Positions 1 to 44,920 of a DNA stretch of 64,000 nt are shown here, piece after piece (within the stretch, counting starts at the first letter, position 1; every line of letters starts with the position of its first letter). The stretch is taken from positions 141,572 to 205,571 of the forward strand of contig CAVOUW010000001.1 in NCBI GenBank assembly GCA_963699705.1, given 5' to 3'. The stretch is from an uncultured delta proteobacterium. GTDB lineage: Bacteria; Desulfobacterota; Binatia; Binatales; Binataceae. Under the pieces are notes generated by a model, which worked only from the letters and a program-made list of their open reading frames with translations, did no database searches and was not told the origin of the DNA. The position numbers and the translations under genes are program-made.

Positions 1-880
1 CAAGAGCTGACGCAACATCGCCGGGACTCCTTCGCGCCGCGATCATCGAGGCCGCGATCATCATCCGGCGCATCATCGGGATGATCTCGACTGCGAGAAT
101 CTCGAAGACGTCGCGGCCGAGCGCGAGCGCACGTCCCAACTGCGCCAGCGCCATCGATGCCCGTCCGCGCGAGACACTCTCAGCGAGCTCGAAAGCTTCG
201 GGCATTCGGCGCGCGCCCTCATCCAAATCTCCCGGCTGCACCTGCTTGCCGCGTTCGGCGAAAATCGTCACTTTGCCGAGCGTGTTGGCGACCGCCGCCA
301 GGTCTCCACCGTGGCGCGAAATAACCAGGTCGAGCGCGGCCGGCGACAACTTCAATCCCAGCGAATTTGCGAATGCGTTTACGTATTGCTCGATCTGGTT
401 GTCGAACGGACGCATGCAATTGACGAGCAGCGCCGCCTTTTCCGCGGCACGGCGGACCTTGGCGGGCGCGCTGTCTTTTTCGTAGAGCAGGATGAGATTG
501 CCGGGGCCGCGCGCCGACTCGATTGCGTCTACCAGCGCCGCTTCCGAGCCTCCACTACCCGACGCGCGCGTGTCGCCGCCGTCAGAATCGGTCGCAGTGT
601 CGGCTTTGTCGCGGCGCGACTTCAGGATTCGACACGCGATTGCGCGCCGGGGCGCGAACAAATCGGGAGCACCAAGTTCGTTGAGCACGACGCCGTAATC
701 GTCACCCGAACCGATTTGAAAACTCCGATATTGGTATCCTTCAGCGGCGAGCTTGCGCACGATCGAATCGAGAACGTACTCGCGCAGGAATGCGTGAGGG
801 CCGAAGATCAGCACTACCGGCGGGATGCGTCGATCTGCGCCAGCCCCTCGAATGTAGGCGAGCGCGGTTTCAAGCGGCAT
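1..880 (-). CDS. holA: DNA polymerase III delta subunit (HolA), 3' end truncated by window edge
   Basis: Hand translation of the minus strand from the ATG at ~880 gives MPLETALAYIRGAGADRRIPPVVLIFGPHAFLREYVLDSIV...NLILLYEKDSAPAKVRRAAEKAALLVNCMRPFDNQIEQYV...GDLAAVANTLGKV..., typical of the HolA clamp-loader delta fold. It runs off the window start. It is not in the ORF track because no stop lies inside the window. The position directly downstream of lptE matches the common lptE-holA order. Confidence 0.8.
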   Translation of the reverse strand, partial: MPLETALAYIRGAGADRRIPPVVLIFGPHAFLREYVLDSIVRKLAAEGYQYRSFQIGSGDDYGVVLNELGAPDLFAPRRAIACRILKSRRDKADTATDSDGGDTRASGSGGSEAALVDAIESARGPGNLILLYEKDSAPAKVRRAAEKAALLVNCMRPFDNQIEQYVNAFANSLGLKLSPAALDLVISRHGGDLAAVANTLGKVTIFAERGKQVQPGDLDEGARRMPEAFELAESVSRGRASMALAQLGRALALGRDVFEILAVEIIPMMRRMMIAASMIAARRSPGDVASAL

Positions 881-896
881 GGTGAAAATTGAAAGG

Positions 897-1502
897 CTAG
901 AAGCCTTCGGCCATCTGAGAGTAGAGGTTTTGCGCGAGCCGCTGCATCATCACGTCGCGGTAGGCCGACGTTTCCGCTTGCGCAGTCTGGATGTCGGTCA
1001 AATTTGCGACGTCGTTGGCGCGCAGGTTCTGCTGCAGGAAGGTTGGGGTCGTAGCCACGGTGGTCTGCGGCACGACTGGAGTGTGTTCGCCGGCGCTGAC
1101 GCTATGCGTCGTCCAGATTGTTTTCTTGGCGTGGAGATCTTTGAGTGACGCCGAAACCACGATGTTCTGGTTGTATTGGGTCGGCTCGAGCGCCGAGTTG
1201 AAGTTCGAAGGAACCGCGCTGACGAACCGAACGTCGCCCGACAGCTCGAGATCGGCGGCCGCCGCACTATCGACGACCTTGAGCCGGCGATGCAACGCGA
1301 TCTCATCCTTGATGTAGCGCATCACCTCATCGTTGACGCCGGTCACACGTGTGCTGTTGGTGAAGCGCGAAACGTAAATCGTGTCGGCACCACTCGGCAA
1401 CGCGTCGCCCGACGCGGCGAAGTGATAGCCGCACCCTGAAAGAAAAAGGCCCGCGACGATTACTAAGCCGAGCAGCCTACTCGGCCTTGGATAACGTGAC
1501 AT
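897..1502 (-). CDS. lptE: LPS-assembly lipoprotein LptE
   Basis: Track ORF 897..1544. The likely start is the internal Met (MSRYPRPSRLLGLVIVAGLFLSGCGYHF), which is preceded by GAAGGGTGAGG. There is a lipobox LSGC, and the LptE-like body sits between nusB and holA. Confidence 0.75.
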   Translation of the reverse strand: MSRYPRPSRLLGLVIVAGLFLSGCGYHFAASGDALPSGADTIYVSRFTNSTRVTGVNDEVMRYIKDEIALHRRLKVVDSAAAADLELSGDVRFVSAVPSNFNSALEPTQYNQNIVVSASLKDLHAKKTIWTTHSVSAGEHTPVVPQTTVATTPTFLQQNLRANDVANLTDIQTAQAETSAYRDVMMQRLAQNLYSQMAEGF

Positions 1503-1923
1503 CCTCACCCTTCTGCTTGAGCCCCAGCCGTCCCGCGATTTCATCCAGCACCCCGTTGACGAAGCGTCCCGACTCGATGTCGCCGTAACATTTCGCGAGC
1601 TCGATAGCTTCGTCGATGGTAACGCGGGTTGGAATGTCCTCCATCCTGAGCAATTCGTAAAGCGCGATGCGCATGATGTTGTGATCGACCCGCGACAGGC
1701 GCTTGACCGACCAATGCTCGAGCGCGTCCGCCAGATGCTTGTCGAGCGCGGGCTGCTCGCGGCGTACCCCTTCCATCAACTGGACGGCGAACTTGCGCGC
1801 GTCATCCTCGACCGGAAAACTTTCGAACAGCGCGGCCAGGTCGTCACTGCTGGCGCCGCCGCAGATATCAATCCGATATAACGCTTTGAGCGCGAGCTCG
1901 CGCCCCTGATGTCTAAGTCCCAT
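1477..1923 (-). CDS. nusB: transcription antitermination factor NusB
   Basis: 148 aa. GRELALKALYRIDI...VDHNIMRIALYELL... is the characteristic NusB signature. Confidence 0.9.
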   Translation of the reverse strand: MGLRHQGRELALKALYRIDICGGASSDDLAALFESFPVEDDARKFAVQLMEGVRREQPALDKHLADALEHWSVKRLSRVDHNIMRIALYELLRMEDIPTRVTIDEAIELAKCYGDIESGRFVNGVLDEIAGRLGLKQKGEDVTLSKAE

Positions 1924-1978
1924 AAAATATCCACAGTCGCGGGCGGCGCGGCAGGCGTCGGCGCAGCGGCTTACGTTT

Positions 1979-3190
1979 TCAAGTGATCAGCTTCAGTTCC
2001 GAGAACAGATGGCCGAGTTTTTCCTTTTTGGTTTTCAAGTACCCGATATTTCCGGCGTGCGGCGTGACTTCGATCGGCACGCGCGAGACGTTCACCCCGT
2101 AACGGCGCAGGCTTTCGATCTTGTGCGGATTGTTGGTAAGCAACTGCACTTCGCCGACCCCGAGGTCGCGCAAAATCTGCGCGCCGATCCCGTAGTCGCG
2201 CAGGTCTTCCTCGAAGCCGAGATGCAAATTCGCTTCGACGGTGTCCATCCCATTGTCCTGCAGCGCGTAGGCGCGAATCTTGTTGCCGAGCCCGATTCCG
2301 CGGCCTTCCTGATGGAGATAGATCACAACGCCGCGATCCGCCGCCATGATTCGGTCGAGCGCTTCCTGCAACTGCTCGCCGCAATCGCATCGCGCGGACG
2401 CAAACACATCGCCAGTAAGACACTCCGAATGGAGCCGCACCAGCGCGGTACGCCCACCGCCGACCTGACCTTTGATCAACGCCAGATGCTCGCGCCCATC
2501 GACGACGTTGCGGAAGACGACCGCATTGAGCATGCCGCCGTCGATCGGAAACGGTTGCTCGGATACGCGCTGGACCAGAACTTCATTGGTCAGGCGATGC
2601 GAAACCAGTTCCTTGACGTAAACTATCGGCAGAGAATGCTGCGCGGCGAATTCGCGGAGTTCCTTGAGACGCGCGGCCTCACCGTCCTCGCGCAGAATCG
2701 TGCACAGCGCCGCGACCGGACCCATCCCGGCCGAGCGCACGAGATCCACCGCTCCCTCGGCGCGTCCTATTCGCACCATCACGCCGCCGCTCAGCGCCAT
2801 CAACGGCAGGATGTGACCAGGCATGACGATATCGTCGTGTCGCGATTCTTCGAAGGCGACCACCGAAATCACGCGCGCGCGATCGCCGGCCGAGATGCCG
2901 GTGGTGGCGCCTTCGCGCGCGTCGATCAGCACGCCGGCCTGCTCGTTGGAATCGCCGTTGTCGGTCGAAGGTTGCAGCGGAATGCCAAGTGCGCGAAAAC
3001 GCTTTTCGGGAATCGCGACCGAGATGACGCCGCGAGCCTCGCGCGCCATGAAATTGATGTCGTCGGGGGTGATTTTCTCGGCCGCCATCACGAGGTCGCC
3101 CTCGGCGTCGTCGCGCTCCTCCGCGATCATCACGACCATCTTTCCGTCGCGTAAGGTGGAGAAAATTTCGTCTAGGGAAGCTGATTTCAT
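1979..3190 (-). CDS. ribBA: bifunctional 3,4-dihydroxy-2-butanone-4-phosphate synthase / GTP cyclohydrolase II (RibBA)
   Basis: 403 aa. The DHBP synthase N-domain ([19 protein letters not shown]) is followed by the GTP cyclohydrolase II zinc motif ([30 protein letters not shown]). Confidence 0.92.
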
Positions 3191-3254
3191 CTGATGCAGT
3201 TCAACGATGGCGATATTATCACCGGTTTGAGAGGCTAACCAGTCTGCGGTTGGC

Positions 3255-3312
3255 GCGGGATGCCAGCAACCTAACCCCTAACCCCTTCCCGAGCGGAAGG
3301 GGAACAAGAAAG
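3255..3312. repeat. module-A palindromic repeat (CCTAACCCCTAACCCCTTCCC-gagc-GGAAGGGG), reverse orientation
   Basis: A stem CCCCTTCC/GGAAGGGG of 8-9 bp is followed by TTAGGGGTTAGG on the opposite strand. The same unit recurs at 9975, 13025, 26395, 31478, 41850, 44828 and 53860. Confidence 0.8.
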
Positions 3313-3339
3313 AAAGGGCTCTTGAGGGACTCCGGACTC

Positions 3340-4462
3340 TTATCGGCGGACGCGGGCCTCTAACAGCGAGTCTTCGCCGACTGGGCGCGCGGACAAATCC
3401 GTGAGCGCGAGTGCGTCTCGCACGCTGCGGGATTTCATCCCTTCGATCGCTTGCAGGCCGGCGCCGAGGATTTTCGGGGCTACAAAGAACGCGATGCGAT
3501 CCACGATACCCGCGCTCAGAGCCGAGCCGGCGAGATTTGCGCCGCCTTCGATCAAGACGCGGCACCATCCGCGATGCCCAAACTCGAGCATCAGGCGATC
3601 CAGCTCGATGATGCCGCTGTGGGTCGCGACGGCGATGACCTCGACGCCGCGTCGCTCAAATCTCTCGCGGGCACGCGAGAGATTTGCCGGCGTGGTCACC
3701 AGGATGGTGACCGCGCGCGAGCGCTGCCGATACACCCGCGCGGTCGGCGCGGTGCGGAGTTGCGCGTCGATGACGACGCGCACCGGATCGCGGCCGCCGG
3801 CGACCCGCGCCGTCAGGCGCGGGTCGTCGGCGATCACGGTGCCGGCGCCGACCATAACGGCGTCGCATTCGCGACGCCATCGATGGACCAGTTCGCGCGA
3901 TTCGCGCGAACTGATCCATCGCGAATCGCCGCTGGCCGCGGCAATTCGCCCGTCTATCGACATCGCCAGCTTGAGGATGCCCAGTGGGCGTCCGAGTCGT
4001 AGCCGCGTGATGAATCCTTCGTTCAGACGGAGCGCTTCGCCTTCAAGCACTCCAACTCGTTACCGCGATTTTCGCGCCCTTGAGGATTGCGATTCCGCTT
4101 CCGCTGACGCGGGGGTCCGGATCAACGCATCCCACGACGACGCGCTTGACCTTCGCCGCGACCAGAGCGTTCGCGCACGGCGGCGTCTGTCCGAAATGCG
4201 CGCAAGGCTCGAACGACACGTACGCGGTCGCGCCGCGCGCGAACGCGCCCGCCTGCGCGAGCGCAACCGTCTCGCCGTGCGGACGCCCGCCGACGCCGGT
4301 GACACCGCGCCCAACGACTTTGTCGCCGCGCACAATCACGCATCCTACCGACGGATTTGGAGTGGTCAGCCCGAGTTGTTCCTGCGCCAGCGCGAGCGCC
4401 TCGCGCATGTAGCGCTGGTCCCGAATCGCGGCCGAATCAGGCGCCGTTGCCTTTCTTTTCAC
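3340..4462 (-). pseudogene. ribD: riboflavin biosynthesis RibD (deaminase plus reductase) interrupted by a +1 frameshift near 4043-4050, or an assembly indel
   Basis: Deaminase ORF 4043..4462 (HGETVALAQAG...VSFEPCAHFGQTPPC, a CDA zinc motif) ends ...AKIAVTSWSA at TGA. Reductase ORF 3340..4050 (GTG start; ...LKLAMSIDGRIAA...) is in the next frame and overlaps by 8 nt. Removing one nucleotide near 4048 restores a continuous linker IAVTVGVLEGEALRLNEGF. This matches the canonical fused RibD linker (E. coli-type ...IEVVSGVLEEEARALNRGF..., recalled from memory). Confidence 0.8.
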
Positions 4463-4940
4463 CGGCGCGGGAGGTAGGCGCTTGCTTGCGTTGATTGATG
4501 AGGTCTTCGAGTTCGTGCATGAACTCGTCGATATCTTTGAACTGGCGATAGACCGACGCGAAGCGCACGTACGCGACCTGATCGATCTTGTGCAACTCGT
4601 TCATCACCGCCGCACCAACCGCGCTGCTGGGGACCTCGCGTTCGCTCTGTTCGGTCATCGCGGTCTCGATGTTGTTGGCGATCTGCTCGATCGTTTCCAT
4701 CGAGACCGGCCGTTTCTCGCATGCGCGTTTGAGCCCGGCGATTATCTTGGCGCGGTCGAACGGTTCGCGGCGATCGTCTTTCTTGACGACCATCGGCGCC
4801 GCTTCCTCGACCCGCTCGTACGTAGTGAAGCGACGCTTGCACGACCCGCACGCGCGCCGACGCCGAATCAGCATGCCATCGTTCGCGAGCCGCGAATCGA
4901 TGACGCGATTTCCACGATGGCGGCAGAAGGGGCACCGCAT
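4437..4940 (-). CDS. nrdR: transcriptional repressor NrdR
   Basis: 167 aa. [17 protein letters not shown]...[16 protein letters not shown] is the NrdR zinc ribbon, and it is followed by an ATP-cone. Confidence 0.92.
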
Positions 4941-5017
4941 GGTCTAGCTTCGGGTCCGCGCGGCAAGTCGCCGCATTCCCGCCGATTTGCGACGAGCGAA
5001 TTTTGAGTCGCGGGGCT

Positions 5018-5257
5018 TCAGCTCTTGTGAGCCTCGATATAGGTGACGACGTCTTTAACGGTGCGGATCTTCTCGGCGTCTTCGTCGGAGATTTCGATGT
5101 TGAACTCCTCTTCGAGCGCCATCACCAGCTCGACGATATCGAGCGAATCGGCGCCGAGGTCCTCGATGAAGGAGGCCTCCGGAGTTACTTCGTCAGCGGC
5201 CACACCCAGCTGTTCGCTTATCTTCTCGCGAACTTTGGTTTCGATGTCTTGAGCCAT
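5018..5257 (-). CDS. acpP: acyl carrier protein
   Basis: 79 aa. [19 protein letters not shown] is the phosphopantetheine attachment motif (DSL). Confidence 0.93.
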
Positions 5258-5414
5258 CGTGCTCTAGTTCCTCCTGGCAGCGAGCCGTAGTTGGGCCGCC
5301 ATTCAATATTCTAACATTATCCCACTGCCACGCAGACCAGAGGTAACGGGCCGAGGGTCGGGATTAAATTATCAGGGGAGCATAAGGACTGAAAGGAGTG
5401 GACGCAAGGCGGAC

Positions 5415-6362
5415 TCAGGTTTTGGCAACGCGTCCCGGTTCCGATACCGCCTTCAACGACGCGAGGTCTTCAAGCGGACGGACGCGGATCGTCCGGTACA
5501 TCCGGCGCATCAGGCCCATCAGGACGCGGCCACATCCGAATTCGATCGCGTCGGTAACGCCACTGCGCGCGACCACTCCCATCGATTCTTCCCATCGCAC
5601 CGGCGAGGTTATCTGTTCGAGCAATAGCGGCACGACGCGGGAGCGATCGTGATTTATCTCCGCGGTAACGTTCGCGATCACTCCAAACTTGAACTCGCCG
5701 ACATTGAGCGCGCGCAGCATCGGTTCCATTCCGTCTCGCGCCGGCTGCATCAGCGGACAATGAAACGGTGCGCTGACTTTCAACTCGACCGACATCGACG
5801 CGCCCCTCTCTTTTGCTATTTCGAGCGCGCGGCGGACGGGAGCAGCGTGTCCAGCGATGACGACTTGGCCGGGCGCGTTGAGATTGGCGGGCAAGGCGAG
5901 CTGACCGTCTTTGGTGACCTCTGCGCAAATCTCACGTACTTGTTGAAGTTCGAGTCCGATCAGCGCCGCCATCGCGCCCTGCCCAGCCGGGACGGCTTCC
6001 TGCATCAGGCGTCCACGCTCGCGGACCGCGCGGACGGCGTCAGGAAATTCGATCGCACCGGCGGCGACCAGCGCGCTGTATTCGCCGAGACTATGGCCCG
6101 CCGCGATTTCCGGCTCGCCGCCGATTTCCTGGCGATAGACCCGCAGCGCCGCGATCGAAGCGGTGACAATCGCGGGTTGCGTGTTCGCGGTCAGACGAAG
6201 TTCGTCTTCGGGACCTTCGAAACAAAGTCTGGATAGCGGAAACCCGAGCGCGTCATCGGCCTCCATGAACGTATCGCGCGCGGCCGGGAAGTTGTCCACG
6301 AACTCCTTGCCCATCCCGACGCGCTGCGATCCTTGCCCAGGAAAAAGAAACGCCAGCTTCAT
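5415..6362 (-). CDS. fabD: malonyl-CoA:ACP transacylase FabD
   Basis: 315 aa. The N-terminus is FLFPGQGSQ and the active site is GHSLGEYSAL. Confidence 0.92.
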   Translation of the reverse strand: MKLAFLFPGQGSQRVGMGKEFVDNFPAARDTFMEADDALGFPLSRLCFEGPEDELRLTANTQPAIVTASIAALRVYRQEIGGEPEIAAGHSLGEYSALVAAGAIEFPDAVRAVRERGRLMQEAVPAGQGAMAALIGLELQQVREICAEVTKDGQLALPANLNAPGQVVIAGHAAPVRRALEIAKERGASMSVELKVSAPFHCPLMQPARDGMEPMLRALNVGEFKFGVIANVTAEINHDRSRVVPLLLEQITSPVRWEESMGVVARSGVTDAIEFGCGRVLMGLMRRMYRTIRVRPLEDLASLKAVSEPGRVAKT

Positions 6363-6376
6363 CTATCGCCGGCGCC

Positions 6377-7795
6377 TCACGAATCGCTCTTCGGCCGGTC
6401 CGGCGAATGCGCGTCCTCACCCTGCGAATGCAACTCGCCCGACTTGTGCGATTTGTCCGCGCCTGGCGCCGTACCGTTGGTTGTCACTGGCGTAGCAGCG
6501 GCGTCGCTGGTCTCGGCCCGCGCTTCATTCTTCAGCGGACCGCTGCCGCGCGGCCGCGAGTGCGTCGATTCGTAATTAGCGCGTTCAATTTTTGGATCAA
6601 CATGATGGTCCGCATGATTGTCCGCGCCGTGCTCCGGCGGCGGTTCGGCCAGCGAGCCCGTGCCGCTCGCCACGGGATGCGACTCGTCGTGCTTGACCGC
6701 CTCGCCTTCTTTCTCGCGACGATGCAACCGTCCCCGCATCTTGCCGAATAACGCGCGGATCCCTTTGCCCGGCGGGGGCTTGATCGGACCGACCGGCTGA
6801 ATCTTCCCGAGAATTTCCAGTATCTCGGCGTTCACGTGATGCACGAGTTGTTCGTTTGCCGCTGCACGAATCGCACTGCGAATCGCCTTCGGATTCGACG
6901 AACCGTGCGCGATGATCGAGACGCCGCTGACACCGAGCAGCGGCGCACCGCCGTATTCCGAAGGATCGAGCCGCTCGCGCATCGCGGTGAGATTTTTTCG
7001 CACCAGCAGATACGCCAGCCGCGTGCGCCAATTGCCGCCGAATACTCCACGCAAACTGCCGAGCAAAAATGACGAGAACCCTTCCATTGTCTTGAGCGCG
7101 ACGTTGCCGGTAAATCCGTCAGTGACGACCACGTCGGCTTTCGCGCGGTTGATGTCGCGGCCCTCGACGTACCCGATGTAGTGCACGTAGGTCGGCATCT
7201 GCTCGAGCATCGCGGCCGCGGCGCGCGTGTTGTCGTTGCCTTTCGAACTTTCCTCGCCGTTGGAAAGAATGCCGACGCGCGGGCGCGAAACGTTGCGCAC
7301 ATGGCGCCAGTACACGCTTCCCATCACAGCGAATTGCACCAGGTTGAGCGGCTTCACATCGACGTTGGCGCCTGCGTCGATCAGTAAGCTGAAGCCTTCA
7401 CTGGTCGGGACCAGCGACGCGATCGCCGGCCGATCGACGTAATTGAGATTGCCCAGGATCATCATCGACGCCGTCATCACGGCGCCCGAATTTCCGGCGC
7501 TGACAAAAGCGCTCGCGTCGCCGCGCTTGACCAGATCGAGTCCAACGTGAATCGAAGATCGCGGCTTAGACAGCACCGACTCGAGCGGCGAGTCGTCCAT
7601 CAGAACGACTTCGGGCGCGTGTTCGATTCGAATCGGCAGATTGGCGGCGTCATGATCGGCGAGTTCGTGCGCGAGTATCTCGCCGTCGCCGACCATCACG
7701 ACCTCAATACCGAAGTCGCGAGCGGCCAGGACGGCGCCCTCAACGGTCGCCTTGGGGGCCAGATCACCCCCCATCGCGTCGAGCGCGATTTTCAC
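6377..7795 (-). CDS. plsX: phosphate acyltransferase PlsX with a ~140 aa low-complexity C-terminal extension
   Basis: Track ORF 6377..7858. The likely start is GTG (VKIALDAMGGDLAP) at ~7795, immediately after the rpmF stop. The PlsX core runs to ~...VNAEILEILGK. A Pro/Gly/His/Glu/Ser-rich tail follows (PPPGKG...EPPPEHGADNHADHHV...SHKSGELHSQGEDAHSPDRPKSDS). Confidence 0.85.
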   Translation of the reverse strand: MKIALDAMGGDLAPKATVEGAVLAARDFGIEVVMVGDGEILAHELADHDAANLPIRIEHAPEVVLMDDSPLESVLSKPRSSIHVGLDLVKRGDASAFVSAGNSGAVMTASMMILGNLNYVDRPAIASLVPTSEGFSLLIDAGANVDVKPLNLVQFAVMGSVYWRHVRNVSRPRVGILSNGEESSKGNDNTRAAAAMLEQMPTYVHYIGYVEGRDINRAKADVVVTDGFTGNVALKTMEGFSSFLLGSLRGVFGGNWRTRLAYLLVRKNLTAMRERLDPSEYGGAPLLGVSGVSIIAHGSSNPKAIRSAIRAAANEQLVHHVNAEILEILGKIQPVGPIKPPPGKGIRALFGKMRGRLHRREKEGEAVKHDESHPVASGTGSLAEPPPEHGADNHADHHVDPKIERANYESTHSRPRGSGPLKNEARAETSDAAATPVTTNGTAPGADKSHKSGELHSQGEDAHSPDRPKSDS

Positions 7796-7812
7796 AGCCG
7801 TACTACCGGTGC

Positions 7813-7992
7813 CTATTCCTTGATCTCGGCCAGCTGGCGGCCGCGGTAGGCGCCACAATGACGACAGATGCGATGCGGCATCACGGGCTCACCGCACGAC
7901 GAGCAGGTGCCGGGATTGACGGCGCGGAGCGCATCATGCGCGCGGCGCATATTTTTTTTCGAATGCGAACTTCGGCGTTTGGGTGCTTGCAT
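7813..7992 (-). CDS. rpmF: 50S ribosomal protein L32
   Basis: Hand translation gives MQAPKRRSSHSKKNMRRAHDALRAVNPGTCSSCGEPVMPHRICRHCGAYRGRQLAEIKE. It has the L32 KRR..S..K motif and a CxxC...CxxC zinc ribbon. It is absent from the ORF track (59 aa) but lies in the expected yceD-rpmF-plsX position. Confidence 0.85.
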   Translation of the reverse strand: MQAPKRRSSHSKKNMRRAHDALRAVNPGTCSSCGEPVMPHRICRHCGAYRGRQLAEIKE

Positions 7993-8026
7993 GACGAATT
8001 ACTTCCTAATGTTAAAGTTGAGCTTA

Positions 8027-8560
8027 TCAGGAGCGCGGCAGTTTAAGCGACCGAATCGCGTCGAGGCGCGGATCGACGATTTCCACGCGGCAGTCGCAGG
8101 TGTTGCGATTCAGATTCAGCCCGCAATGCGGGCACAGGCCGCGGCAATCCTCCTGGCACAGCGGACGCGTCGGCAACGCGAGCAGGACTTGCTCGCGAAT
8201 CAGCGGGCTCAGGTCCACCTCGTCGCCCTCATACAATGAAAATTCCAAATCTTCAGCGCGCAGAGTGTCGTCGTCATATCCGATCGACTTGGGCGACAGC
8301 ACGAAGCGAAACGGACGGTCGCCCGCCGCGTCGAAATCCTCGGCGCATCGAGCACACACCGCGCCGGTCCGCGTCCTCAGTTGGCCTTCGAAGAACAGCT
8401 CGGTGCCGGCGCGATAAAACGATACCGACACTTCGACCGGGCCTTCGAGGTGATATTCGCGGATCGGTCCCTCGCCCAGGATACGGTTAATTTCCTGCTC
8501 CGGTTCGGCAAACGCCAGGAGTTTGGCATCCGCCGTTATGTCCTCGATTCGGATTTTCAC
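8027..8560 (-). CDS. yceD: YceD/DUF177 family protein (23S rRNA accumulation protein)
   Basis: 177 aa. The Cys-rich C-terminus is CQEDCRGLCPHCGLNLN..CDC. Its position upstream of rpmF is canonical. Confidence 0.8.
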   Translation of the reverse strand: MKIRIEDITADAKLLAFAEPEQEINRILGEGPIREYHLEGPVEVSVSFYRAGTELFFEGQLRTRTGAVCARCAEDFDAAGDRPFRFVLSPKSIGYDDDTLRAEDLEFSLYEGDEVDLSPLIREQVLLALPTRPLCQEDCRGLCPHCGLNLNRNTCDCRVEIVDPRLDAIRSLKLPRS

Positions 8561-8705
8561 TTTTCACGCCCACATGACGCCTTGGACGGGGATCGGGGAA
8601 CGGAAATTATTACATTTCGGTGGCGATCTTCAAATACACCGGTTGGCGCAATCGCAGATTTACCTGTAGCGTCGGAAAGATTTCATCACCGAAGGAAAAT
8701 TTCAG

Positions 8706-9962
8706 ATGGCAACCGAGCGTTTCACTTTTCCCGCGAATTTTCTTTGGGGCACCGCGACCGCCGCTCATCAAGTCGAGGGCAACAACGTCAACAGCGACTA
8801 CTGGCTTCTCGAGCATACGCCGGGGTCGCCGTTCTTCGAACCGTCGGGCGACGCGTGCGATCAGTATCATCTATACGCCGACGACATCGCGATGCTCGCG
8901 CGGCTCGGCTTCAACTCCTATCGCTTCTCGATCGAATGGGCCCGCGTCGAGCCGGAGCGTGGCGAGTTCTCACGCGCAGCGCTCGACCATTACCGGCGCG
9001 TGCTCGCATGCTGCCACGAGCACAAGATAACACCGGTCGTAACGTTTCATCATTTCACCTCGCCGCGATGGGTTACCGGCGACGGCGGATGGGAAGACAA
9101 AAGAACCGCCGAACTGTTCGCGAGATACTGCGAGCGCGCGGCGGCGCATCTCGGCGATCTGATCGGCGTCGCATGCACGATCAACGAGGCCAACCTCGGC
9201 GCCTACCAGTATCTGGTCGGCACGCTGCCGTTGAAGCTCGACCCGGAGCGCTTGCCATGGCTCTCAGACGCGGCCCGTCGTATCGGCGCCGATCCAAATC
9301 GTTTCGCGCCATTCCTGATGTGCGATCAGATGAACGCGCGCGACGTGATGCTCGAAGCGCATCGCCTTAGCACCGCGGCGCTGAAATCGTCGCGCGGCAA
9401 ATATCCAGTCGGAATTTGCCTCGCACTCGGAGATCTCCAGGCCATGCCCGGCGGCGAACAGCGTCGCGATCGGATCAAGGCCGAATGCCAGGATATTTTC
9501 TACGAAGCAGCGCGCGGCGACGATTTTGTTGGCGTCCAGACCTACACGCGCAACCGCATCAGCGCCGACGGCACGCTGCGCCCGGAACCCGGCGTCGAGA
9601 CCACGTTGATGGGTTACGAATTCTGGCCTGAAGCGCTCGAAGCGAACATCCGCCAGGCCAGCGCAGTCGCAAAAGTGCCGATCATTGTCACCGAGAACGG
9701 AATTGGCACCGACAAGGACGATCGCCGAATCGAGTACGTGCGCCGCGCCCTTAACGGTGTCGCGCGATGCGTCCGCGACGGCATCGACGTGCGCGGCTAC
9801 TTCTACTGGTCGCTGCTGGACAACTATGAATGGAACTCCGGCTACCGCCCAACCTTCGGACTGGTCGCGGTGGATCGTACGACTCAAGCGCGATCGATCA
9901 AGCCGAGTGCAGAATGGCTAGGCAACATCGCCCGCGCCAACGCGATGGATATCACCGACTGA
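8706..9962 (+). CDS. glycoside hydrolase family 1 beta-glucosidase
   Basis: 418 aa. It has the GH1 N-terminus FPANFLWGTATAAHQVEG, the acid/base TINEAN and the nucleophile IVTENGIG. Confidence 0.9.
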   Translation: MATERFTFPANFLWGTATAAHQVEGNNVNSDYWLLEHTPGSPFFEPSGDACDQYHLYADDIAMLARLGFNSYRFSIEWARVEPERGEFSRAALDHYRRVLACCHEHKITPVVTFHHFTSPRWVTGDGGWEDKRTAELFARYCERAAAHLGDLIGVACTINEANLGAYQYLVGTLPLKLDPERLPWLSDAARRIGADPNRFAPFLMCDQMNARDVMLEAHRLSTAALKSSRGKYPVGICLALGDLQAMPGGEQRRDRIKAECQDIFYEAARGDDFVGVQTYTRNRISADGTLRPEPGVETTLMGYEFWPEALEANIRQASAVAKVPIIVTENGIGTDKDDRRIEYVRRALNGVARCVRDGIDVRGYFYWSLLDNYEWNSGYRPTFGLVAVDRTTQARSIKPSAEWLGNIARANAMDITD

Positions 9963-9969
9963 CCAACTC

Positions 9970-10020
9970 TTAAATCCGGTTCCCCTTCCCGCGCGGGAAG
10001 GGGTTAGGGGTTAGGTTCTT
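9970..10020. repeat. module-A palindromic repeat (GGTTCCCCTTCCC-gcgc-GGGAAGGGGTTAGGGGTTAGGTTC)
   Basis: A 9-bp perfect stem with a 4-nt loop sits between the convergent GH1 and nth genes. On the opposite strand it supplies the last codons (EPNP) and the TAA stop of the nth ORF. Confidence 0.85.
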
Positions 10021-10684
10021 TGCGCCGCACCTTCCCCACGCCAATCCGCGGGCAATCGTTCGCGAATGCGCACACCTCGCACTGCGGCTTGCGCGCGATG
10101 CAAATCTGCCGGCCGTGCAGGATCAGCCGCATCGAGAATGGCGTCCAATCTTTCGGCGGCAGGATTTTCTGCATGTCGATCTCGATCTTCGCGGGATCAG
10201 TGTCCTTCGTGAATCCCAGCCGATACGTCAGCCGGCGCACGTGCGTATCGACCACGAACCCCGGCCGGCCGAAAACATGCCCGAGGATCACGTTCGCGGT
10301 CTTGCGCCCCACGCCCGGAATTTTCACCAGCGCGTCCATCTCGGACGGAACCTCGCCGCCGTAATCCTCGACAATCTTCTTCGCCGCGCCCATCAGCGAG
10401 CGCGTCTTCTGCCGAAAGAATCCGGTCCTGACGATTAACTCTTCGACGTGTCGCGGATCGGCCGCCGCCATCGCGCGCGCGTCTGGATACTCTTTGAATA
10501 GTCGCGGCGTTACCAGATTGACGCCGACGTCGGTGGACTGTGCGGAAAGAATCGTCGCCGCCAGGCATTGCCACGGCGTTTCGAAATCAAGGCTGATGCG
10601 CGCCTCGGGATAGAGCTTCGCCAGCCCGCGCGAGACGCGGCCTGCGCGCTTCTTCAAATCCGCGATCGATTCGCGCGCCGCCAT
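10004..10684 (-). CDS. nth: endonuclease III (Nth)
   Basis: 226 aa. It has the HhH-GPD motif (VKIPGVGRKTANVIL) and the 4Fe-4S cluster CxxxxxxCxxCxxxxxC (CIARKPQCEVCAFANDC). Confidence 0.92.
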   Translation of the reverse strand: MAARESIADLKKRAGRVSRGLAKLYPEARISLDFETPWQCLAATILSAQSTDVGVNLVTPRLFKEYPDARAMAAADPRHVEELIVRTGFFRQKTRSLMGAAKKIVEDYGGEVPSEMDALVKIPGVGRKTANVILGHVFGRPGFVVDTHVRRLTYRLGFTKDTDPAKIEIDMQKILPPKDWTPFSMRLILHGRQICIARKPQCEVCAFANDCPRIGVGKVRRKEPNP

Positions 10685-10697
10685 GGTTGTTCAATGC

Positions 10698-12329
10698 TTA
10701 CGCGACGACGCGCCGGCTCTGCTGCTCATGCGTGAAGCTCGCGACTTCGGCAGTCTCGCGCGCGCGATCCCATCCGAGCTCGGCCGCCATTATGCGCGCG
10801 ACTGCCGATGCCGCCGCTTCCGCTTCGACTGGCGATCGCCACGACAGCGACGTGCGCCGAATCAGAAAGTCGCCGACCGAATGCGCCATCTCATTGCCGA
10901 CCGCGTTGACGACCTCTGCTCCAATCGCCGGACAGTTGCGCGACAGCGGCTCGGCCAGCTCCGGCCGACGGGCCGCAATTCTTGCAATGATCGGCGCGCG
11001 GGTTCCATAACGCGCTTTCAGAATTTCCGCTGACGCGGCCGAAATACTTCGCATTGAGATCGTCGCGCCGCCACCAGAGTTGTCGCCGTCTGCGAGCGGA
11101 CGCGCGCCGGGAAATGGAGTCGTGAGCGTCGGGCAAACTCCCACTCGACGTCCCAATCCTTTCATCACTCGATCGACAATCTTCTGCGCAATCGCGCGAT
11201 GCGTGGTGAACTTTCCGCCGGCGACTGTGATTAGTCCCGACGTGCTTTCTAAAATAACTTCCTCGCGCGGCACCGACGACGGCGCTTCCTTGTCTTCCCT
11301 GACAAGAGCGCGCAGCCCCGCGAAACTAGTCGCCACGTCGGCGTTGGTTAGTTTGATTCCCGGCAGGCTCTCGGCCAGCACCGCGATCAGATATTCGACG
11401 TCGCCAATTTCCGTCCTGACGTTCGCGGGATCGGCGGCAAAATCCGTGTCGGTCGTACCCACCAGCACGTAGCGGTCATGCGGCATGACGAACACGATTC
11501 GCCCGCGCTCGTCGGCCAGCACGATCGATTCGCGCACCGGCAGAATCGTCCGTGCAAACACCAGGTGCACGCCCTTGGTCAATCGCACGCACGGCTTTGA
11601 GGCGGGATCGTCCATCCGGCGTATGTCGTCCACCCACGGGCCGGTCGCGTTCAGGAATTTTTTCGCACGAATTTCGCCGACGGCGCCGCCGATCAGATCG
11701 CGCACGCTCGCCGACGCGATCTTTCCGTCGATGAGGCCGAAACTTTCGACCGCCGTGTAGTTCGCGACCGCCGCGCCGTGCAAATCCGCGTCGAGCACGT
11801 TCTCGAAGGTCACGCGCGCATCGTCGGCCCACGCGTCGAAGTACATCGCGCCTCCGGTCAACCCTTCGCGGCTGAGCGCGGGCTCGGTCTCGCGCACCTC
11901 GGACGCATTCAGACTCGAATGCCACTCCTTGAACGGCATCCGTGCGAACAGGTCGTACAGCGTCAGTCCCATCGACATCGTGAACCGATTGAACCCGCGC
12001 CGGCGGTAAACCGGAAACAGAAATTGAATCGAATGCACCAAATGCGGCGCGGTCCGATGCCGCAATCGCTCCCGCTCGCGCAGCGCTTCATACACGAGTT
12101 TGAACTGCCCCTGCGGGAGGTAACGGAAGCCGCCGTGGATCAACTTCGACGATCGCGACGAGGTGGCGCCGGCAAAATCGCCGCGGTCAATCAACGCGAC
12201 CTTCAAGCCGCGCATCGACGCGTCACGCGCGACCGCAGCGCCATTGATCCCCGCGCCGAATACCGCGAGATCGAATTCCTCGTCGCGGAATCGCGCCAGG
12301 CTCTTTTCACGATTGAGAGTAGCCGCCAA
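10698..12329 (-). CDS. glpD: FAD-dependent glycerol-3-phosphate dehydrogenase (GlpD)
   Basis: The track ORF extends to 12398 and overlaps the upstream gene. The FAD fold FDLAVFGAGINGAAVARDAS.RGLKVALI...SSRSSKLIHGGFRYL aligns with the GlpD N-terminus. The true start is probably an internal TTG/GTG near 12329. The start is uncertain. Confidence 0.8.
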   Translation of the reverse strand: MAATLNREKSLARFRDEEFDLAVFGAGINGAAVARDASMRGLKVALIDRGDFAGATSSRSSKLIHGGFRYLPQGQFKLVYEALRERERLRHRTAPHLVHSIQFLFPVYRRRGFNRFTMSMGLTLYDLFARMPFKEWHSSLNASEVRETEPALSREGLTGGAMYFDAWADDARVTFENVLDADLHGAAVANYTAVESFGLIDGKIASASVRDLIGGAVGEIRAKKFLNATGPWVDDIRRMDDPASKPCVRLTKGVHLVFARTILPVRESIVLADERGRIVFVMPHDRYVLVGTTDTDFAADPANVRTEIGDVEYLIAVLAESLPGIKLTNADVATSFAGLRALVREDKEAPSSVPREEVILESTSGLITVAGGKFTTHRAIAQKIVDRVMKGLGRRVGVCPTLTTPFPGARPLADGDNSGGGATISMRSISAASAEILKARYGTRAPIIARIAARRPELAEPLSRNCPAIGAEVVNAVGNEMAHSVGDFLIRRTSLSWRSPVEAEAAASAVARIMAAELGWDRARETAEVASFTHEQQSRRVVA

Positions 12330-12342
12330 CGAATCCGACCGA

Positions 12343-12948
12343 TCAGTCTTCCGGATCTTCCTGGAACGAATAGCGCTCTTCGGTCCAGGGATCGGCATGG
12401 TTGTGATAGCCGCGCACTTCCCAGAATCCGCGCCGATCGATATCTGTAAATTCGATCGCGCGCACCCATTTTGCGCTCTTCCATCCGTAGAGCTTCGGCA
12501 CGATCAGCCGCAGCGGAAATCCGTGGTCAAGCTCGAGATCGCGCCCATCATGCCGATGCGCGAGCATCACATCGTCGGCGAGAAATTCATTTAACGGCAG
12601 GTTGGTCGTGTAATCACCGTCGCAATGGATAATCACGTGACGCGCTTCAGGACTCAGCTTCACCAGCTTCATCAGATCGACAATCCGGACGCCTTCCCAC
12701 GCATTGTCGAGCCGCGACCAGGTCGTCACACAATGAAAATCGGCGACCTCGCGCGACTGGGGCAGTGCGCGAAATTCTTCGTACGAAAATCGCAGCGGCT
12801 TCTCGAGCAGTCCAACTACTTTGAAATCCCAGGTTTTGGGATCGAAATGCGGAGTGGGACCGTAGGTCAGCACGGGAAATTTGTCGGTGAGGATTTGTCC
12901 TGGCGGGACCCGCGCGGCAAGGTCCTGCGAGGTGAGCGGCTTTGCCAT
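12343..12948 (-). CDS. molybdopterin-dependent oxidoreductase, sulfite-oxidase / MsrP(YedY)-like catalytic domain
   Basis: 201 aa. Motifs ...FHCVTTWSRLDNAWEGV... and ...LRLIVPKLYGWKSAKWV... are characteristic of the SO/YedY Moco-binding fold. No signal peptide is seen. Confidence 0.7.
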   Translation of the reverse strand: MAKPLTSQDLAARVPPGQILTDKFPVLTYGPTPHFDPKTWDFKVVGLLEKPLRFSYEEFRALPQSREVADFHCVTTWSRLDNAWEGVRIVDLMKLVKLSPEARHVIIHCDGDYTTNLPLNEFLADDVMLAHRHDGRDLELDHGFPLRLIVPKLYGWKSAKWVRAIEFTDIDRRGFWEVRGYHNHADPWTEERYSFQEDPED

Positions 12949-13014
12949 GATGGGTGACTATTATCTGACGGATAGATCTGGCGAAAGGGTCCATGTCGCG
13001 AAGTGAATCGCGCT

Positions 13015-13235
13015 CACGCGCGAAGAACCTAACCCCTAATCCCCTTCCGCGCGGGAAGGGGAACCAGAGAGTTTCATTTGGAGCGCGCCGCCTATCCCCC
13101 ACGCCCCCCTTTCATGAAAAGGGGAACAGAAAAGAGGCGGCGCGTTCTATCTTTCAACTTTTAACACTGGGTGCAGGGGTCACCCCTGCCGAAGGAAGCG
13201 TGAAACCCACCGCGGGTTTCACATTCAATTAGTGA
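13015..13235. repeat. composite mosaic repeat (modules A-B-C, reverse orientation)
   Basis: 13025-13065 is an A unit (CCTAACCCCTAATCCCCTTCC-gcgc-GGGAAGGGGAACC). 13085-13130 is a B-like unit (CCTATCCCCCACGCCCCCCTTTC-atga-AAAGGGGAAC). 13181-13232 is a C unit (GGTGCAGGGGTCACCCCTGCCGAAGGAAG-cg-TGAAACCCACCGCGGGTTTCA). The same three modules occur in the opposite order at 26268-26445 and 53655-53900. Confidence 0.85.
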
Positions 13236-14294
13236 TAACCCTTCCCTCACCCGCGCGACATCGCCTTGACGATTGCCGCTCGTTACCTCGCTCGTTGATG
13301 CTTTCCCGCCTACGTCGCGGGTCAGGACTTTGCCCGCGCGCAGCACCGACGCTGTTGCCGCGCGGATTTTGTCGCCGGCACTGCGATGTCCCAAATAGTC
13401 GAGCATCATCGCACTCGACAGGATCATCGCGATCGGATTCGCGACGCCTTTGCCCGCGATATCCGGCGCCGTCCCGTGCACCGCTTCGAAAATCGCGCCC
13501 TTGTCGCCGTAGTTCGCGCCCGGCACGAGTCCCAATCCTCCCACCAGCCCCGCGCACAAATCCGAAACGATATCGCCGTAGAGATTTTCCAGCAGCAGCA
13601 CGTCGAAAGATTCCGGATGCGTCACCAACCGCATGCAGGCCGCGTCAACGATTTGCTCCTGGTAGCGAATTTCCTTGTAGCCGGTTGATACCGCGCGCGC
13701 GCATTTCAAGAACAGGCCGTCCGATAGCTTCATTATGTTGGCTTTATGAATGGCGGTGACCGATTTGCGCCGATGCGTCCGCGCGTAGTCGAACGCGAAT
13801 TTCGCGATTCGCCGAGACGCGCGCGCCGTGATTACCTTGATACTCTCGACCACGCCGGGCGCGATCTCGTGCTCGATTCCCGAATACAGGTCCTCGGTAT
13901 TCTCGCGCACGACGATCAGATCGACGTTGCTGAACGGCGTATGCACTCCCGCAAAATTCATCGTCGGGCGCACGTTGGCGTAGAGGTCGAAGGTGCGCCG
14001 CAGATACACGTTGATCGAGCGCCATCCCTCGGCCACGCGCGTCTCGAGCGGCCCCTTGAGCGCGACTCCGGTACGTTTGAGCGATTTGATAAGCGCATCG
14101 GGCACTGGAGTTCCGAAGCGTCGAAACGCGTTCATCCCCGCCGCTTGGCGATCCCAAGCGATCGCGACGCCGGTCGCCTCGATCACCGCCAGCGCCGCGT
14201 TCACCACTTCCGGCCCGACCCCATCACCGGGAATCAACGTCACCGCGCGAGGGTGATTTTTCTGCGAGGCCGTAGTCTGGCTCTTCTTCTTCAA
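13161..14294 (-). CDS. isocitrate/isopropylmalate dehydrogenase family enzyme (NAD-IDH-like; could be tartrate/D-malate dehydrogenase)
   Basis: 377 aa. [12 protein letters not shown]...[20 protein letters not shown] is the ICDH/IPMDH fold. The last ~25 residues ([21 protein letters not shown]) are a read-through of the module-C repeat. The true C-terminus is probably earlier, or the repeat provides the stop. Confidence 0.8.
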
Positions 14295-26263: not shown

Positions 26264-26264
26264 T

Positions 26265-26450
26265 CTAATGTGAAACCCGCGGTGGGTTTCACGCTTCCTT
26301 CGGCAGGGGTGACCCCTGCACCAAGTGAGAGAAATTTCTGTTCCCCCTTTCCCTCGGGAAAGGGGGTGAGGGGGATAGGACGGGCGGAATGGTTGCCTCA
26401 ATCCGGTTCCCCTTCCCTCGAGGGAAGGGGTTAGGGGTTAGGTTGCCGGG
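26265..26450. repeat. composite mosaic repeat (modules C-B-A, forward)
   Basis: C is TGAAACCCGCGGTGGGTTTCA-cg-CTTCCTTCGGCAGGGGTGACCCCTGCACC. B is GTTCCCCCTTTCC-ctc-GGGAAAGGGGGTGAGGGGGATAGGAC. A is CCGGTTCCCCTTCCC-tcga-GGGAAGGGGTTAGGGGTTAGGTT. Confidence 0.88.
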
Positions 26451-31469: not shown

Positions 31470-31562
31470 TATCTCAGGAACCTAACCCCTAACCCCTTCC
31501 CGCGCGGGAAGGGGGACCGGATTAATGGTTACCCCTTCTCACCCGGGAAGGGGAACCGGATT
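31470..31562. repeat. module-A repeat (reverse) plus a second related hairpin
   Basis: GAACCTAACCCCTAACCCCTTCCC-gcgc-GGGAAGGGGGACCGG is followed by TTACCCCTTC-tcacccg-GGAAGGGGAACCGG. Confidence 0.85.
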
Positions 31563-34305: not shown

Positions 34306-35535
34306 ATGCCAGTATTTGCTTATCGAGGTCTTGGCGCCGACGGTCGCTCCGTCAACGGCGTAGTTGACGCCGACAGCGCGCGCACCGCACGCGGCAAGTT
34401 GCGCGCGTCGGGGATTTTTCCGACCGACCTCAACGAGGAGTCCAACGCCGCGCAACGCTCGGCCGCCAAGCGCGAGTGGCTGCCCTCGCTCTGGCGGCGC
34501 AAGATGCCGGCCTCGGATCTCGCGCTGCTGACGCGGCAGTTGAGCGCGTTGCTCGGCGCGGGCGTGCAGCTGGTCGATGCGCTCAGCGCGCTCGCCGATC
34601 AATCGTCGCGCGCCGCGACCAAGCGGATGCTCTCTCAAGTGCGCGAGCGCGTGCGCGAGGGCTCGTCGCTGGCCGACGCGCTGACCAATCATCGCGACGT
34701 CTTTTCAGACCTCTACATCGGGATGGTGCGTGCCGGCGAGCAGGCTGCCGCGCTCGAGGCCGTTCTTGATCGGCTGGCCGAGTACAGCGAGCGCCAGAAT
34801 GAATTCGTAACCAAGGTTCGCGGCGCGCTGACCTATCCGATCATCATGATGTGCGTCGGCACCGGAATCATGGCGTTCCTGGTGGCGTACGTGGTGCCGC
34901 AGGTCGCGACGATTTTCCAGCAGCAACATGCCGCCTTGCCCTTGGCGACGCGAATCCTGATCACCTTTTCCGGTCTCGTCACCGGCTACTGGATTCCGCT
35001 TGGCCTGCTGCTGGTCGGTATCGTCGCAGGATTCACCGCCGCGATGGCGACGCCGCGCGGCCGCCGCATCTACGACACCGCGATCCTGAAGGTGTATTAC
35101 ATCGGCCCGACCATGATTCGAATTATCTGCGCCCGCTTCGCACGGACGCTCGCAACTCTGCTCGCCAGCGGCGTCCAGTTGCTTCCCTCGCTCGACGCGG
35201 TCAAAGGCGTGGTGACCAACGGTCTGCTCAAGGACGCCGTCGAGCAGAGCCGCGAAAGTATCCGCGAGGGCCACGGCATGGCGCAGACGCTCGCGCGCAG
35301 CGGTCTTTTTCCGCCGCTGCTGATCGAGATGATCCGCGTTGGCGAGCGTTCCGGCGAACTTGAGCGGATGCTCGAGCGGGTCGCCGACAACTACGAGCGC
35401 GAAGTCTCGCACTCGCTCAGCCAGATGACCACCGTGCTCGAACCGGTGATGACGCTGGCGATGGCCGCTGTTATCGTGTTCATGATGCTTGCGGTGCTGA
35501 TGCCAATCTTCCAGCTCAACCAGTTGATGCAATGA
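34306..35535 (+). CDS. gspF: type II secretion system inner-membrane platform protein GspF
   Basis: 409 aa. Duplicated GspF domains are present (LLGAGVQLVDAL..., ...LLASGVQLLPSL...) with 3 TM segments. Confidence 0.9.
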   Translation: MPVFAYRGLGADGRSVNGVVDADSARTARGKLRASGIFPTDLNEESNAAQRSAAKREWLPSLWRRKMPASDLALLTRQLSALLGAGVQLVDALSALADQSSRAATKRMLSQVRERVREGSSLADALTNHRDVFSDLYIGMVRAGEQAAALEAVLDRLAEYSERQNEFVTKVRGALTYPIIMMCVGTGIMAFLVAYVVPQVATIFQQQHAALPLATRILITFSGLVTGYWIPLGLLLVGIVAGFTAAMATPRGRRIYDTAILKVYYIGPTMIRIICARFARTLATLLASGVQLLPSLDAVKGVVTNGLLKDAVEQSRESIREGHGMAQTLARSGLFPPLLIEMIRVGERSGELERMLERVADNYEREVSHSLSQMTTVLEPVMTLAMAAVIVFMMLAVLMPIFQLNQLMQ

Positions 35536-35573
35536 TGAATGAAAAAGTGAAAAATGCGCCGGAGGTAACTGCG

Positions 35574-36003
35574 ATGAAATCACGCCGATACAATCAGGAT
35601 GGTTTCACCCTGATTGAAATCATGGTGGTCATCCTCATCCTCGGCCTGCTCGCGACCATCGTCGTCCAGAGCCTTCGCGGCGCCGCCGACAAGGCCAAGA
35701 CGCACCAAGGCGCAGGCCGACATGGCCGAGCTCAAGACCGCACTCGATCGTTACTACCTCGACAACGGCTTCTACCCGACCACCGACCAGGGCTTGAGTT
35801 CGCTGGTTTCGCCGCCGAGCAGCGGACGCACGCCCGCCAACTACGAGGCTGGCGGTTACATCGAGCGCCTGCCGACGGATCCATGGGGCAATCAGTACTT
35901 CTACCAGAGCGATGGGAACTCCTACGCGCTGAAGTCGTTCGGCAAAGGCGGCACCGAAAGCCAGGACACTTCGGGCGTTATAGACGCCAGCCAATCGAAT
36001 TGA
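35574..36003 (+). pseudogene. gspG: major pseudopilin GspG, split by a +1 frameshift near 35700 (or an assembly indel)
   Basis: Frame 1 gives the prepilin N-terminus MKSRRYNQDGFTLIEIMVVILILGLLATIVVQSLRGAADKAKTHQ... and then becomes Arg-rich nonsense. Frame 2 (track ORF 35614..36003) gives ...KAQADMAELKTALDRYYLDNGFYPTTDQGLSSLV...GGYIERLPTDPWGNQYFYQS.... This matches the GspG body. Deleting one C in CACCAAGG rejoins them as ...ADKAKTHKAQADMAELK.... Confidence 0.8.
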
Positions 36004-36015
36004 CGGCGTTATGAA

Positions 36016-38662: not shown

Positions 38663-40157
38663 ATGGCTCAACGAATACTTGCACTCGAGCTGGGAGCCGA
38701 TCGCGTACGCGCGGCGATGGCCGAGCGCTCGTGGAATTCCTTCACCCTCGCCGGCACCTTCGACAAGGTTCGCGCCGATGACGAGGCCGACCTGAGCGGC
38801 GCGCTCGCGCGCCTCGTGGTCGAAGCCGGGCAGCCCGATATCGTCATCTCGGCCCTGCCCGCCGACCGCGCCGTCAAACGCTTGCTCGAACTGCCGTTCA
38901 AAGACGCGCGCCGCCTGCATCAGGTGGTCCCGTTCGCTCTGGAAGAGCATCTGCCGTTCCCGGTGGATAACGGCACTGTCGCATTCACGCGCGTCGGCCG
39001 CGAGGCCGATCACACGCTGGTGATGGCCGCGATGGTGCGCAAGACCGATCTTCAGCAGCATCTTGATCTGCTGCAAAAGGCGGGACTCGATCCGAAGACC
39101 GTCACGCTCGCGCCACTGGCGCTGGCCGCGATGTTCACGCGCAACAAGAATGGCAACGGCGCCAAGCCGATGGCGCACCTCGTCGTCGAGGGCGACGAGT
39201 CGTCCACGTCGGTCGTGCTGGTCGATCTCGGAGGCACCCCGCGCGTGCTGCGTTCGATGCAAGGCGGCTTGATGATGTCCGACGGATCGGTGGTCTCCAA
39301 TGAAGCCGCCGCGCCGATTCTCAATTCGGTGCGTCAAACCCTGCTCGCCAACGGCGAAGATGCGGACCAGACCGAGGTGATCGTCGCGGGCGCGGCGGCG
39401 GCGTATCCGAAAGTGCGCGGACATGCTGTCGGACTCGCTCGCGATGTCGGTGCGCGACGGCGGCGCGTTCGACTACACCGGCATCTTCGAGGGCAGCGTT
39501 CCCAACACCGGCAAGTATTCATCGTGCCTCGCGATGCTGCTCGGCGAGATGCCGACCAAGCCGATCGATCTGATCAATTTCCGCCAGGGCGAGTTCATGT
39601 TTCGCGGACGCGTCCGCGGCGATCTCAGCCCGTTCTACACCTCGGGCATTCTCGCGGCGGCCGTGCTGGGCGTGGTCATACTTCATTTCGCGCTCGGCGT
39701 GTCCGCCAATCTTCATCGCCTCCACAAAGTCGATGCGGAAATTGCCGCAGTCGCCGGACCGGTCCTCGGCGAAACCGATCCCGCCAACGCCAAGGCGCAG
39801 TTGCAGACCGGAATCGCCAGGATGAACAAGCGGCTCAACCTCATCGGCGGCAACATGACTCATTCGCCGCTCGATACCCTGGTCGCGGTGTCGCGCGCAT
39901 TGCCGCCGCGCTTTCCAGTCCAGATGGCCGACGTAACGATCGACTCGCAAGGACTTCGCGTAACCGGACAGGCGGATTCGTTCTCGACCGTCGATCAAGC
40001 CAAGCGTGCGCTCGACCAAAGCGGCTTCTTCGGCGCGATCGAAGTCGCGCACGCGAAGGCCGGCTCCGGCTCCGATGCGAGCAAAGTTGATTTTCGGATG
40101 GACGCAAATTTCAAGGACGCGGTGCCGTCAGCTGATCGCGGCGACCTCGAAGAATAA
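38663..40157 (+). pseudogene. gspL: GspL, split by a +1 frameshift in the GCGGCGGCGGCG run near 39395-39420 (or an assembly indel)
   Basis: Frame A (38663..~39420) is the cytoplasmic actin-like GspL domain (MAQRILALELGADRVRAA...) and then ~220 codons of Arg-rich nonsense. Frame B (39423..40157) carries the TM helix (ILAAAVLGVVILHFALGV) and the periplasmic GspL C-domain. The two halves together make a normal-length GspL. Confidence 0.78.
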
Positions 40158-44824: not shown

Positions 44825-44825
44825 C

Positions 44826-44920
44826 GCGAGGAACCTAACCCCTAACCCCTTCCCGAGCGGGAAGGGGGACCGGAAATTTTGGAGTAACCTCTTCCCATAG
44901 TGGGAAGGGGACCAGAAAAA
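44826..44920. repeat. module-A repeat (reverse) plus a second related hairpin
   Basis: GAACCTAACCCCTAACCCCTTCCC-gagc-GGGAAGGGGGACCGG is followed by CTCTTCCCA-tagt-GGGAAGGGGACC. This is the same arrangement as at 31470-31562. Confidence 0.85.

Follow-up and report, generated by a model that had tools for sequence, protein, structure and literature searches.

The ribD locus as assembled

The 64-kb stretch of DNA analysed here (the window) comes from a Candidatus Binatus / Binataceae bacterium of a soil-type metagenome. The genes around ribD are arranged in the order lptE, nusB, ribBA, ribD, nrdR, acpP, fabD, plsX, rpmF and yceD, within which nrdR-ribD-ribBA-nusB (1477–4940) forms a riboflavin-operon context that has the same layout in L001, the closest strain found. 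Neither ribE (riboflavin synthase) nor ribH (lumazine synthase) adjoins these four genes, and an Rfam search of the whole window matched no RNA element, FMN riboswitches included. The features of the locus are as follows.

4437..4940, minus strand: nrdR, upstream of ribD in the same operon; syntenic with the ATP-cone gene of L001
4043..4462, minus strand: 5′ part of ribD, deaminase ORF; PF00383, 66.4 bits; TIGR00326 positions 1–117
4054..4060, minus strand: ACGAGTT, the seven-base string containing the extra base; relatives have six bases, ACGACT (L002, L003) or GCAGTT (L001)
4043..4050, minus strand: apparent start/stop overlap of 8 nt, GTGCTTGA; linker codons GTG-CTT-GAA (Val-Leu-Glu)
3340..4050, minus strand: 3′ part of ribD, linker helix and reductase ORF; PF01872, 167.4 bits; TIGR00326 positions 121–341
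1979..3190, minus strand: ribBA (DHBP synthase / GTP cyclohydrolase II), downstream neighbour of ribD
1477–1923: nusB, after ribBA

An earlier note on this DNA had described ribD as split by a one-nucleotide frameshift into deaminase and reductase ORFs overlapping by 8 nt. Both ORFs were recovered on the minus strand, each with its own domain match, and they overlap at 4043–4050. The deaminase ORF begins at GTG 4462 (139 aa; the alternative start, ATG 4408, gives 121 aa) and stops at a TGA occupying 4043–4045 on the plus strand, the coordinates that the note had given. It contains both zinc-ligand motifs (H-x-E and P-C...C), as HGE and EPCAHFGQTPPC, and its last five residues, TSWSA, are out of frame. 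The reductase ORF runs from GTG 4050–4048 to 3340 (236 aa) and carries the C-terminal, DHFR-like RibD_C reductase domain, which also matches TIGR00227 at 184 bits. Upstream of this GTG the reductase frame stays open as far as a TAA at 4062–4060, and before and across the GTG it reads R-V-G-V-L-E-G-E-A, the conserved RibD linker.

An intergenic repeat of about 55 nt, one copy of which lies between ribD and ribBA, occurs in the window in both orientations. It comprises a G+C-rich hairpin, CCCCTTCCC-nnnn-GGGAAGGGG, followed by TTAGGGGTTAGG, and by its letters looks like a REP or terminator-like element. Copies are located at 3261–3316, 9968–10021, 13019–13074, 26395–26448, 31472–31527, 41845–41898, 44825–44880 and 53846–53899, with longer composite copies at 26258–26448 and 53653–53899.

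One base separates the two halves of RibD

Bifunctional RibD/RibG proteins such as those of E. coli (2g6v) and B. subtilis (2b3z) combine the same deaminase and reductase domains and zinc-site motifs as the window; in the window, however, the domains lie in different frames as assembled, and one base must go before they can be read together. The ORFs as assembled thus lack the single frame of a bifunctional RibD and its whole-protein score: against TIGR00326 (eubact_ribD; curated cut-off 156.35 bits) the deaminase ORF scores 147.9 bits, below the cut-off, and the reductase ORF 169.7 bits, each covering part of the model. Deleting one base regains the fused linker, as the earlier note had proposed, and gives a fused RibD that scores 337.8 bits over positions 1–341. 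Because a one-base deletion restores the full fused-family match, the split requires exactly one extra base. Deletion of any single base within 4054–4061 yields a 373-residue protein; the extra base may therefore sit anywhere in that interval, and comparison with relatives places it best at G4058 or A4057. The reconstructed RibD aligns unbroken, end to end, with solved structures, the E. coli enzyme 2g6v among them.

Two polypeptides for the two activities are also known in nature, in archaea, fungi (Rib2/Rib7) and plants; in archaea and fungi each activity has an enzyme of its own (PMC3668577). Taken by itself, the reductase ORF matches monofunctional reductases, including 2azn (M. jannaschii), 6p8c and TIGR01508 (130 bits). 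Naturally separate genes are, however, old, conserved and independently expressed, whereas the split in the window is present in one assembly and lacks translation signals of its own.

ribD is fused in relatives

Related loci were drawn from a species-representative genome collection; every one is a Candidatus Binatus / Binataceae MAG, and many have names of the form MFDxxxxx.bin... contig_N. The comparison with orthologues that the earlier note had called for shows a fused ribD in these relatives. L001, which corresponds to ENA contig_201 and is 98.9% identical in DNA to window 1–14405 (14.4 kb), encodes an intact, fused RibD of 355 aa that is 98% identical to the reconstructed window protein. 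RibD is fused in all 120 of the 120 best database protein matches (335–403 residues), and ribD is recovered by tblastn as one single segment in 76 of 82 loci. Truncated RibD fragments on long ENA contigs are also among the protein-search matches. The split itself is not conserved in related genomes: five other loci with a broken ribD break at other sites. Both split-ORF products are singletons, found only on one 466,535-bp contig (NCBI, ENA), and neither peptide searches nor exact look-ups of the eight possible repaired proteins returned an independent copy of this allele across the junction. The junction reads as follows.

Window: GCG GTA ACGAGTT GGA GTG
L001: GCG GTA GCA GTT GGA GTG
L002 (a short-read MAG) and L003: GCG GTA ACG ACT GGA GTG

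The stretch immediately 3′ of the junction, GGAGTGCTTGAAGG, is the same in the intact gene of L001; it holds both the apparent start codon GTG and the CTT-GAA from which the apparent stop TGA is read. Because this stretch is identical in intact L001, the start/stop overlap is a by-product of Val-Leu-Glu codons and not an adaptation. Inspection by eye revealed no Shine-Dalgarno sequence at a functional distance from the reductase GTG, where a GGAG abuts the GTG and a GAG lies 5 nt upstream.

Further +1 frameshifts in the window

The ribD lesion has company. The earlier note had counted three +1 events in the window, which proved too low: at least four were identified, each consisting of one extra base in a gene whose counterparts in relatives are intact, at ribD (about 4058), an Iso_dh-family dehydrogenase gene (about 13277), gspG (35700) and gspL (39421–39423). 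None of the four sites contains a long homopolymer. The three beyond ribD are as follows.

13277, minus strand: extra G near the 3′ end of the Iso_dh-family dehydrogenase gene; ORF as assembled 13161..14294
35700, plus strand: extra A in gspG, gene 35532..36014
39419..39425, plus strand: GGACATG in a gspL-like gene, 38663..40157; relatives have GGACTG or GGCATG

In the Iso_dh-family gene, the conserved 10-residue C-terminus, intact in L001 and more than 20 other loci, is lost and replaced by a 38-residue read-through tail that runs into an intergenic repeat. The gspG ORF as assembled (160 aa) looks complete, and its frameshift was found solely through comparison with a second related locus, L123; its last ~100 residues, two thirds of the gene, are out of frame. 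With A35700 deleted, GspG is 156 aa long and regains the T2SSG domain (95 bits) missing from the assembled ORF. The gspL-like gene is split into ORFs 38663..40090 and 39423..40157, its third-position GC changes frame at about 39370–39430, and the junction is crossed in one frame by 32 of 32 relatives from JGI short-read metagenomes. A Pfam screen of about 40 further same-strand ORF pairs that overlap or adjoin found separate, complete genes, gspL excepted.

The extra bases resemble merged alleles

The comparison of alleles covered three of the four +1 sites, those in ribD, Iso_dh and gspL (for gspG a single allele was available), and at each the assembly reads as a merge, one base too long, of two alleles that occur in relatives.

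ribD: ACGACT (L002/L003) and GCAGTT (L001); window ACGAGTT
Iso_dh: ACGAGCGCAATC and ACGGCGGCAATC; window ACGAGCGGCAATC
gspL: GGACTG and GGCATG; window GGACATG; L123 has GGCACTG, the other possible merge

Such strings could arise as follows. In the RibD linker, the two codons after Val-135 would be hypervariable among co-occurring strains; the alleles observed there include ACG-ACT, GCA-GTT and ACG-GTG. If reads from two such haplotypes were placed against each other as ACGA-CT and GC-AGTT, with gaps that compensate, a polisher or consensus working column by column could retain both gap columns and so emit the seven-base ACGAGTT in place of six bases. The shifted frame would then meet a TGA five codons on, generated from the normal CTT-GAA, and the normal GTG valine codon just upstream would come to resemble a start codon. 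A consensus drawn from such a two-haplotype pile-up predicts both gspL merges exactly, whereas it is very unlikely that real insertions would have arisen twice, independently, at one gspL codon and both times have imitated a merge of those two alleles. We infer this pile-up mechanism, and with it a strain-mixed assembly for the window. Because the pattern is one of merged alleles, it points to strain mixture rather than homopolymers as the source of such errors.

Two of the sites also share a sequence. There are exactly two copies of the 9-mer GGTAACGAG in the window (expected 0.14), on the minus strand at 4056–4064 and 13279–13287, and both sit at +1 sites (ribD and Iso_dh). The pairing may be coincidental, or it may reflect a consensus bias tied to this k-mer. 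Truncated forms of the motif, GGTAACG including GGTAACGG, occur elsewhere without an indel, and a motif-specific systematic error was rejected on that count.

Frameshifts in the sister assembly

Both L001 (98.9%) and L123 (99.1–99.4% identical to the window) are loci of one sister assembly, ENA ERZ25039470 contig_201, which has lesions of its own. L001 carries a one-base deletion at 3983 in nth, splitting endonuclease III into 3728–4018 and 4018–4407; nth is intact in the window and in a Logan contig. In L123, an insertion at 5917 in gspF fuses gspF to gspG in one 569-aa ORF, gspG has its own +1 at 6330, some 75 nt beyond the site in the window, and gspL is frameshifted at the same codon as in the window, around 9975–9985, where it carries the GGCACTG given above. 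Look-ups of nth and nusB led only to the sister contig and to two short Logan contigs of run ERR10755948; these Logan contigs are 99.5–99.9% identical to the window and show no indels, and ribD lies outside their span.

Between window 1–14405 and L001, the transition/transversion ratio is about 1.1 (75 to 66), and several indels have clustered substitutions within 12 nt. Because of this low ratio and the substitutions clustered around indels, the comparison suggests that part of the divergence between the two may be consensus error as well.

Frameshifts are in excess in long-read assemblies of the clade

Sequencing platforms were contrasted by aligning 14 neighbourhood proteins with tblastn to all fetched loci. 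Across 31 MFD/Flye "contig_" loci, the aligned coding sequence (323 kb) contained 41 adjacent frame changes, of which 32 are net +1; 26 short-read MAG loci gave at most four in 175 kb, two of which resemble alignment noise. For ribD itself, a frameshifted gene is present in 5 of 30 MFD-named loci, against none of ~21–25 short-read loci, and the five other MFD MAGs concerned (L031, L047, L050, L056 and L057) are broken at six different sites.

The MFD MAGs come from the Microflora Danica long-read catalogue, which is Nanopore-only and was assembled with Flye and polished with one round of Medaka (PMC12313526); its authors inspected it for Nanopore-associated errors (PMC12313526). Indels that cause frameshifts are a known weakness of Nanopore consensus sequences (PMC9262707), and tools such as proovframe and Kastor exist for their repair. 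From contig size, taxon, the near-identical sister contig of MFD type and the error pattern, we infer that the window's assembly is very probably likewise long-read and Nanopore-only.

The lesions in the window resemble those of Nanopore-only MAGs made with Flye and Medaka, in which a one-base indel cuts a conserved gene into two adjacent ORFs, and in which such indels are many per assembly, while short-read assemblies of that clade lack them; PMC9262707 describes the problem, and PMC12313526 acknowledges it for the MFD catalogue. The resemblance is incomplete. The published accounts stress homopolymers, whereas the events in the window lie outside long homopolymers; three of the four are located at multi-nucleotide polymorphic codons, and the bias towards insertion is strong (the 32 of 41 at MFD loci). 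Long homopolymers are the classic context of Nanopore error, and their absence from the four sites counts against the artefact reading.

Weighing the explanations

Several independent lines, all of them circumstantial, indicate that the split in ribD is probably a consensus artefact at a polymorphic site, with a probability of roughly 0.86 on the sequence comparisons made here. The lesion is confined to one assembly, similar lesions are found in the same window, and frame changes are in excess in long-read assemblies of the clade. The earlier note had left the choice open between an assembly indel and a genuine mutation, inactivating or splitting the gene. The indel gains from the uniqueness of the allele, the other +1 events, the allele merge and the Nanopore excess, whereas nothing specific was found in favour of the genuine option.

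A genuine recent split of ribD is accordingly unlikely, although it would not be senseless. If the frameshift were recent and real, ribD could work as two cistrons, with the reductase translationally coupled through the GTG that overlaps the TGA. The 8-nt overlap has a geometry suited to coupling. The cut also coincides exactly with the boundary of the two domains, the place at which a protein would best withstand being divided: aligned to E. coli RibD (2g6v), it comes after the final strand of the deaminase fold and before the linker helix. There is, moreover, no crosstalk between the RibD domains, and in E. coli the place of RibD can be taken by monofunctional enzymes (PMC3668577). We nevertheless consider this arrangement improbable, given that it is seen in a single assembly, that its GTG and TGA are pre-existing linker codons also present in intact L001, that no Shine-Dalgarno sequence was seen by eye at a usable distance, and that its signature is common to three +1 events that make no functional sense, such as a gspG deprived of its globular domain. 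To take the extra base as real and the newly split gene, with its two coupled working cistrons, as a first step of gene fission is very improbable. So, to our reading, is a genuine inactivating mutation, under which the organism would rely on riboflavin uptake or on a second ribD elsewhere. The deposited sequence does contain a frameshift, as a pseudogene would, but this is one lesion with no further decay: both domains reach full-strength family scores, the adjoining ribBA is intact, the reconstructed protein is nearly that of the sister strain, and no second ribD copy exists within the 64-kb window. The artefact signature and the platform statistics weigh against a pseudogene too.

Programmed +1 frameshifting of the prfB type, which would deliver full-length RibD from the sequence as it stands, has in its favour that the frames are related by +1 and that the upstream frame ends at UGA soon after the shift window. 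Against it, the window has no conserved shift site, slippery codon or stimulatory element of the prfB kind: 4054–4061 contains no CUU-UGA-type slippery or hungry codon and is preceded by no Shine-Dalgarno stimulator, the extra base is present in no relative, so that the shift site is not conserved, and in other MAGs the breaks in ribD fall at six unrelated sites. With neither conservation nor a shift site, programmed frameshifting was rejected; its probability is close to negligible. Against the artefact reading stands the type II secretion operon, where gspF, gspG and gspL are all frameshifted in one or both of the window and its sister; genuine decay of the operon would be another way to read these lesions.

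Implications

Taken as a consensus artefact, the ribD split has small biological weight, and its weight lies in quality control. The window and the surrounding Nanopore-only Binataceae MAGs carry about one frameshift per 8–16 kb of coding sequence, mostly single-base insertions. At this load, counts of pseudogenes, split genes and missing pathways will mislead, for example by suggesting auxotrophy for riboflavin or a lost type II secretion system. Such errors can be spotted from sequence comparison alone by their allele-merge pattern. For ribD the finding is an ordinary one, because the apparent split comes from one extra assembled base that is most likely a consensus error; most likely, too, the organism's ribD is an ordinary fused gene for a bifunctional enzyme and its riboflavin pathway is normal.
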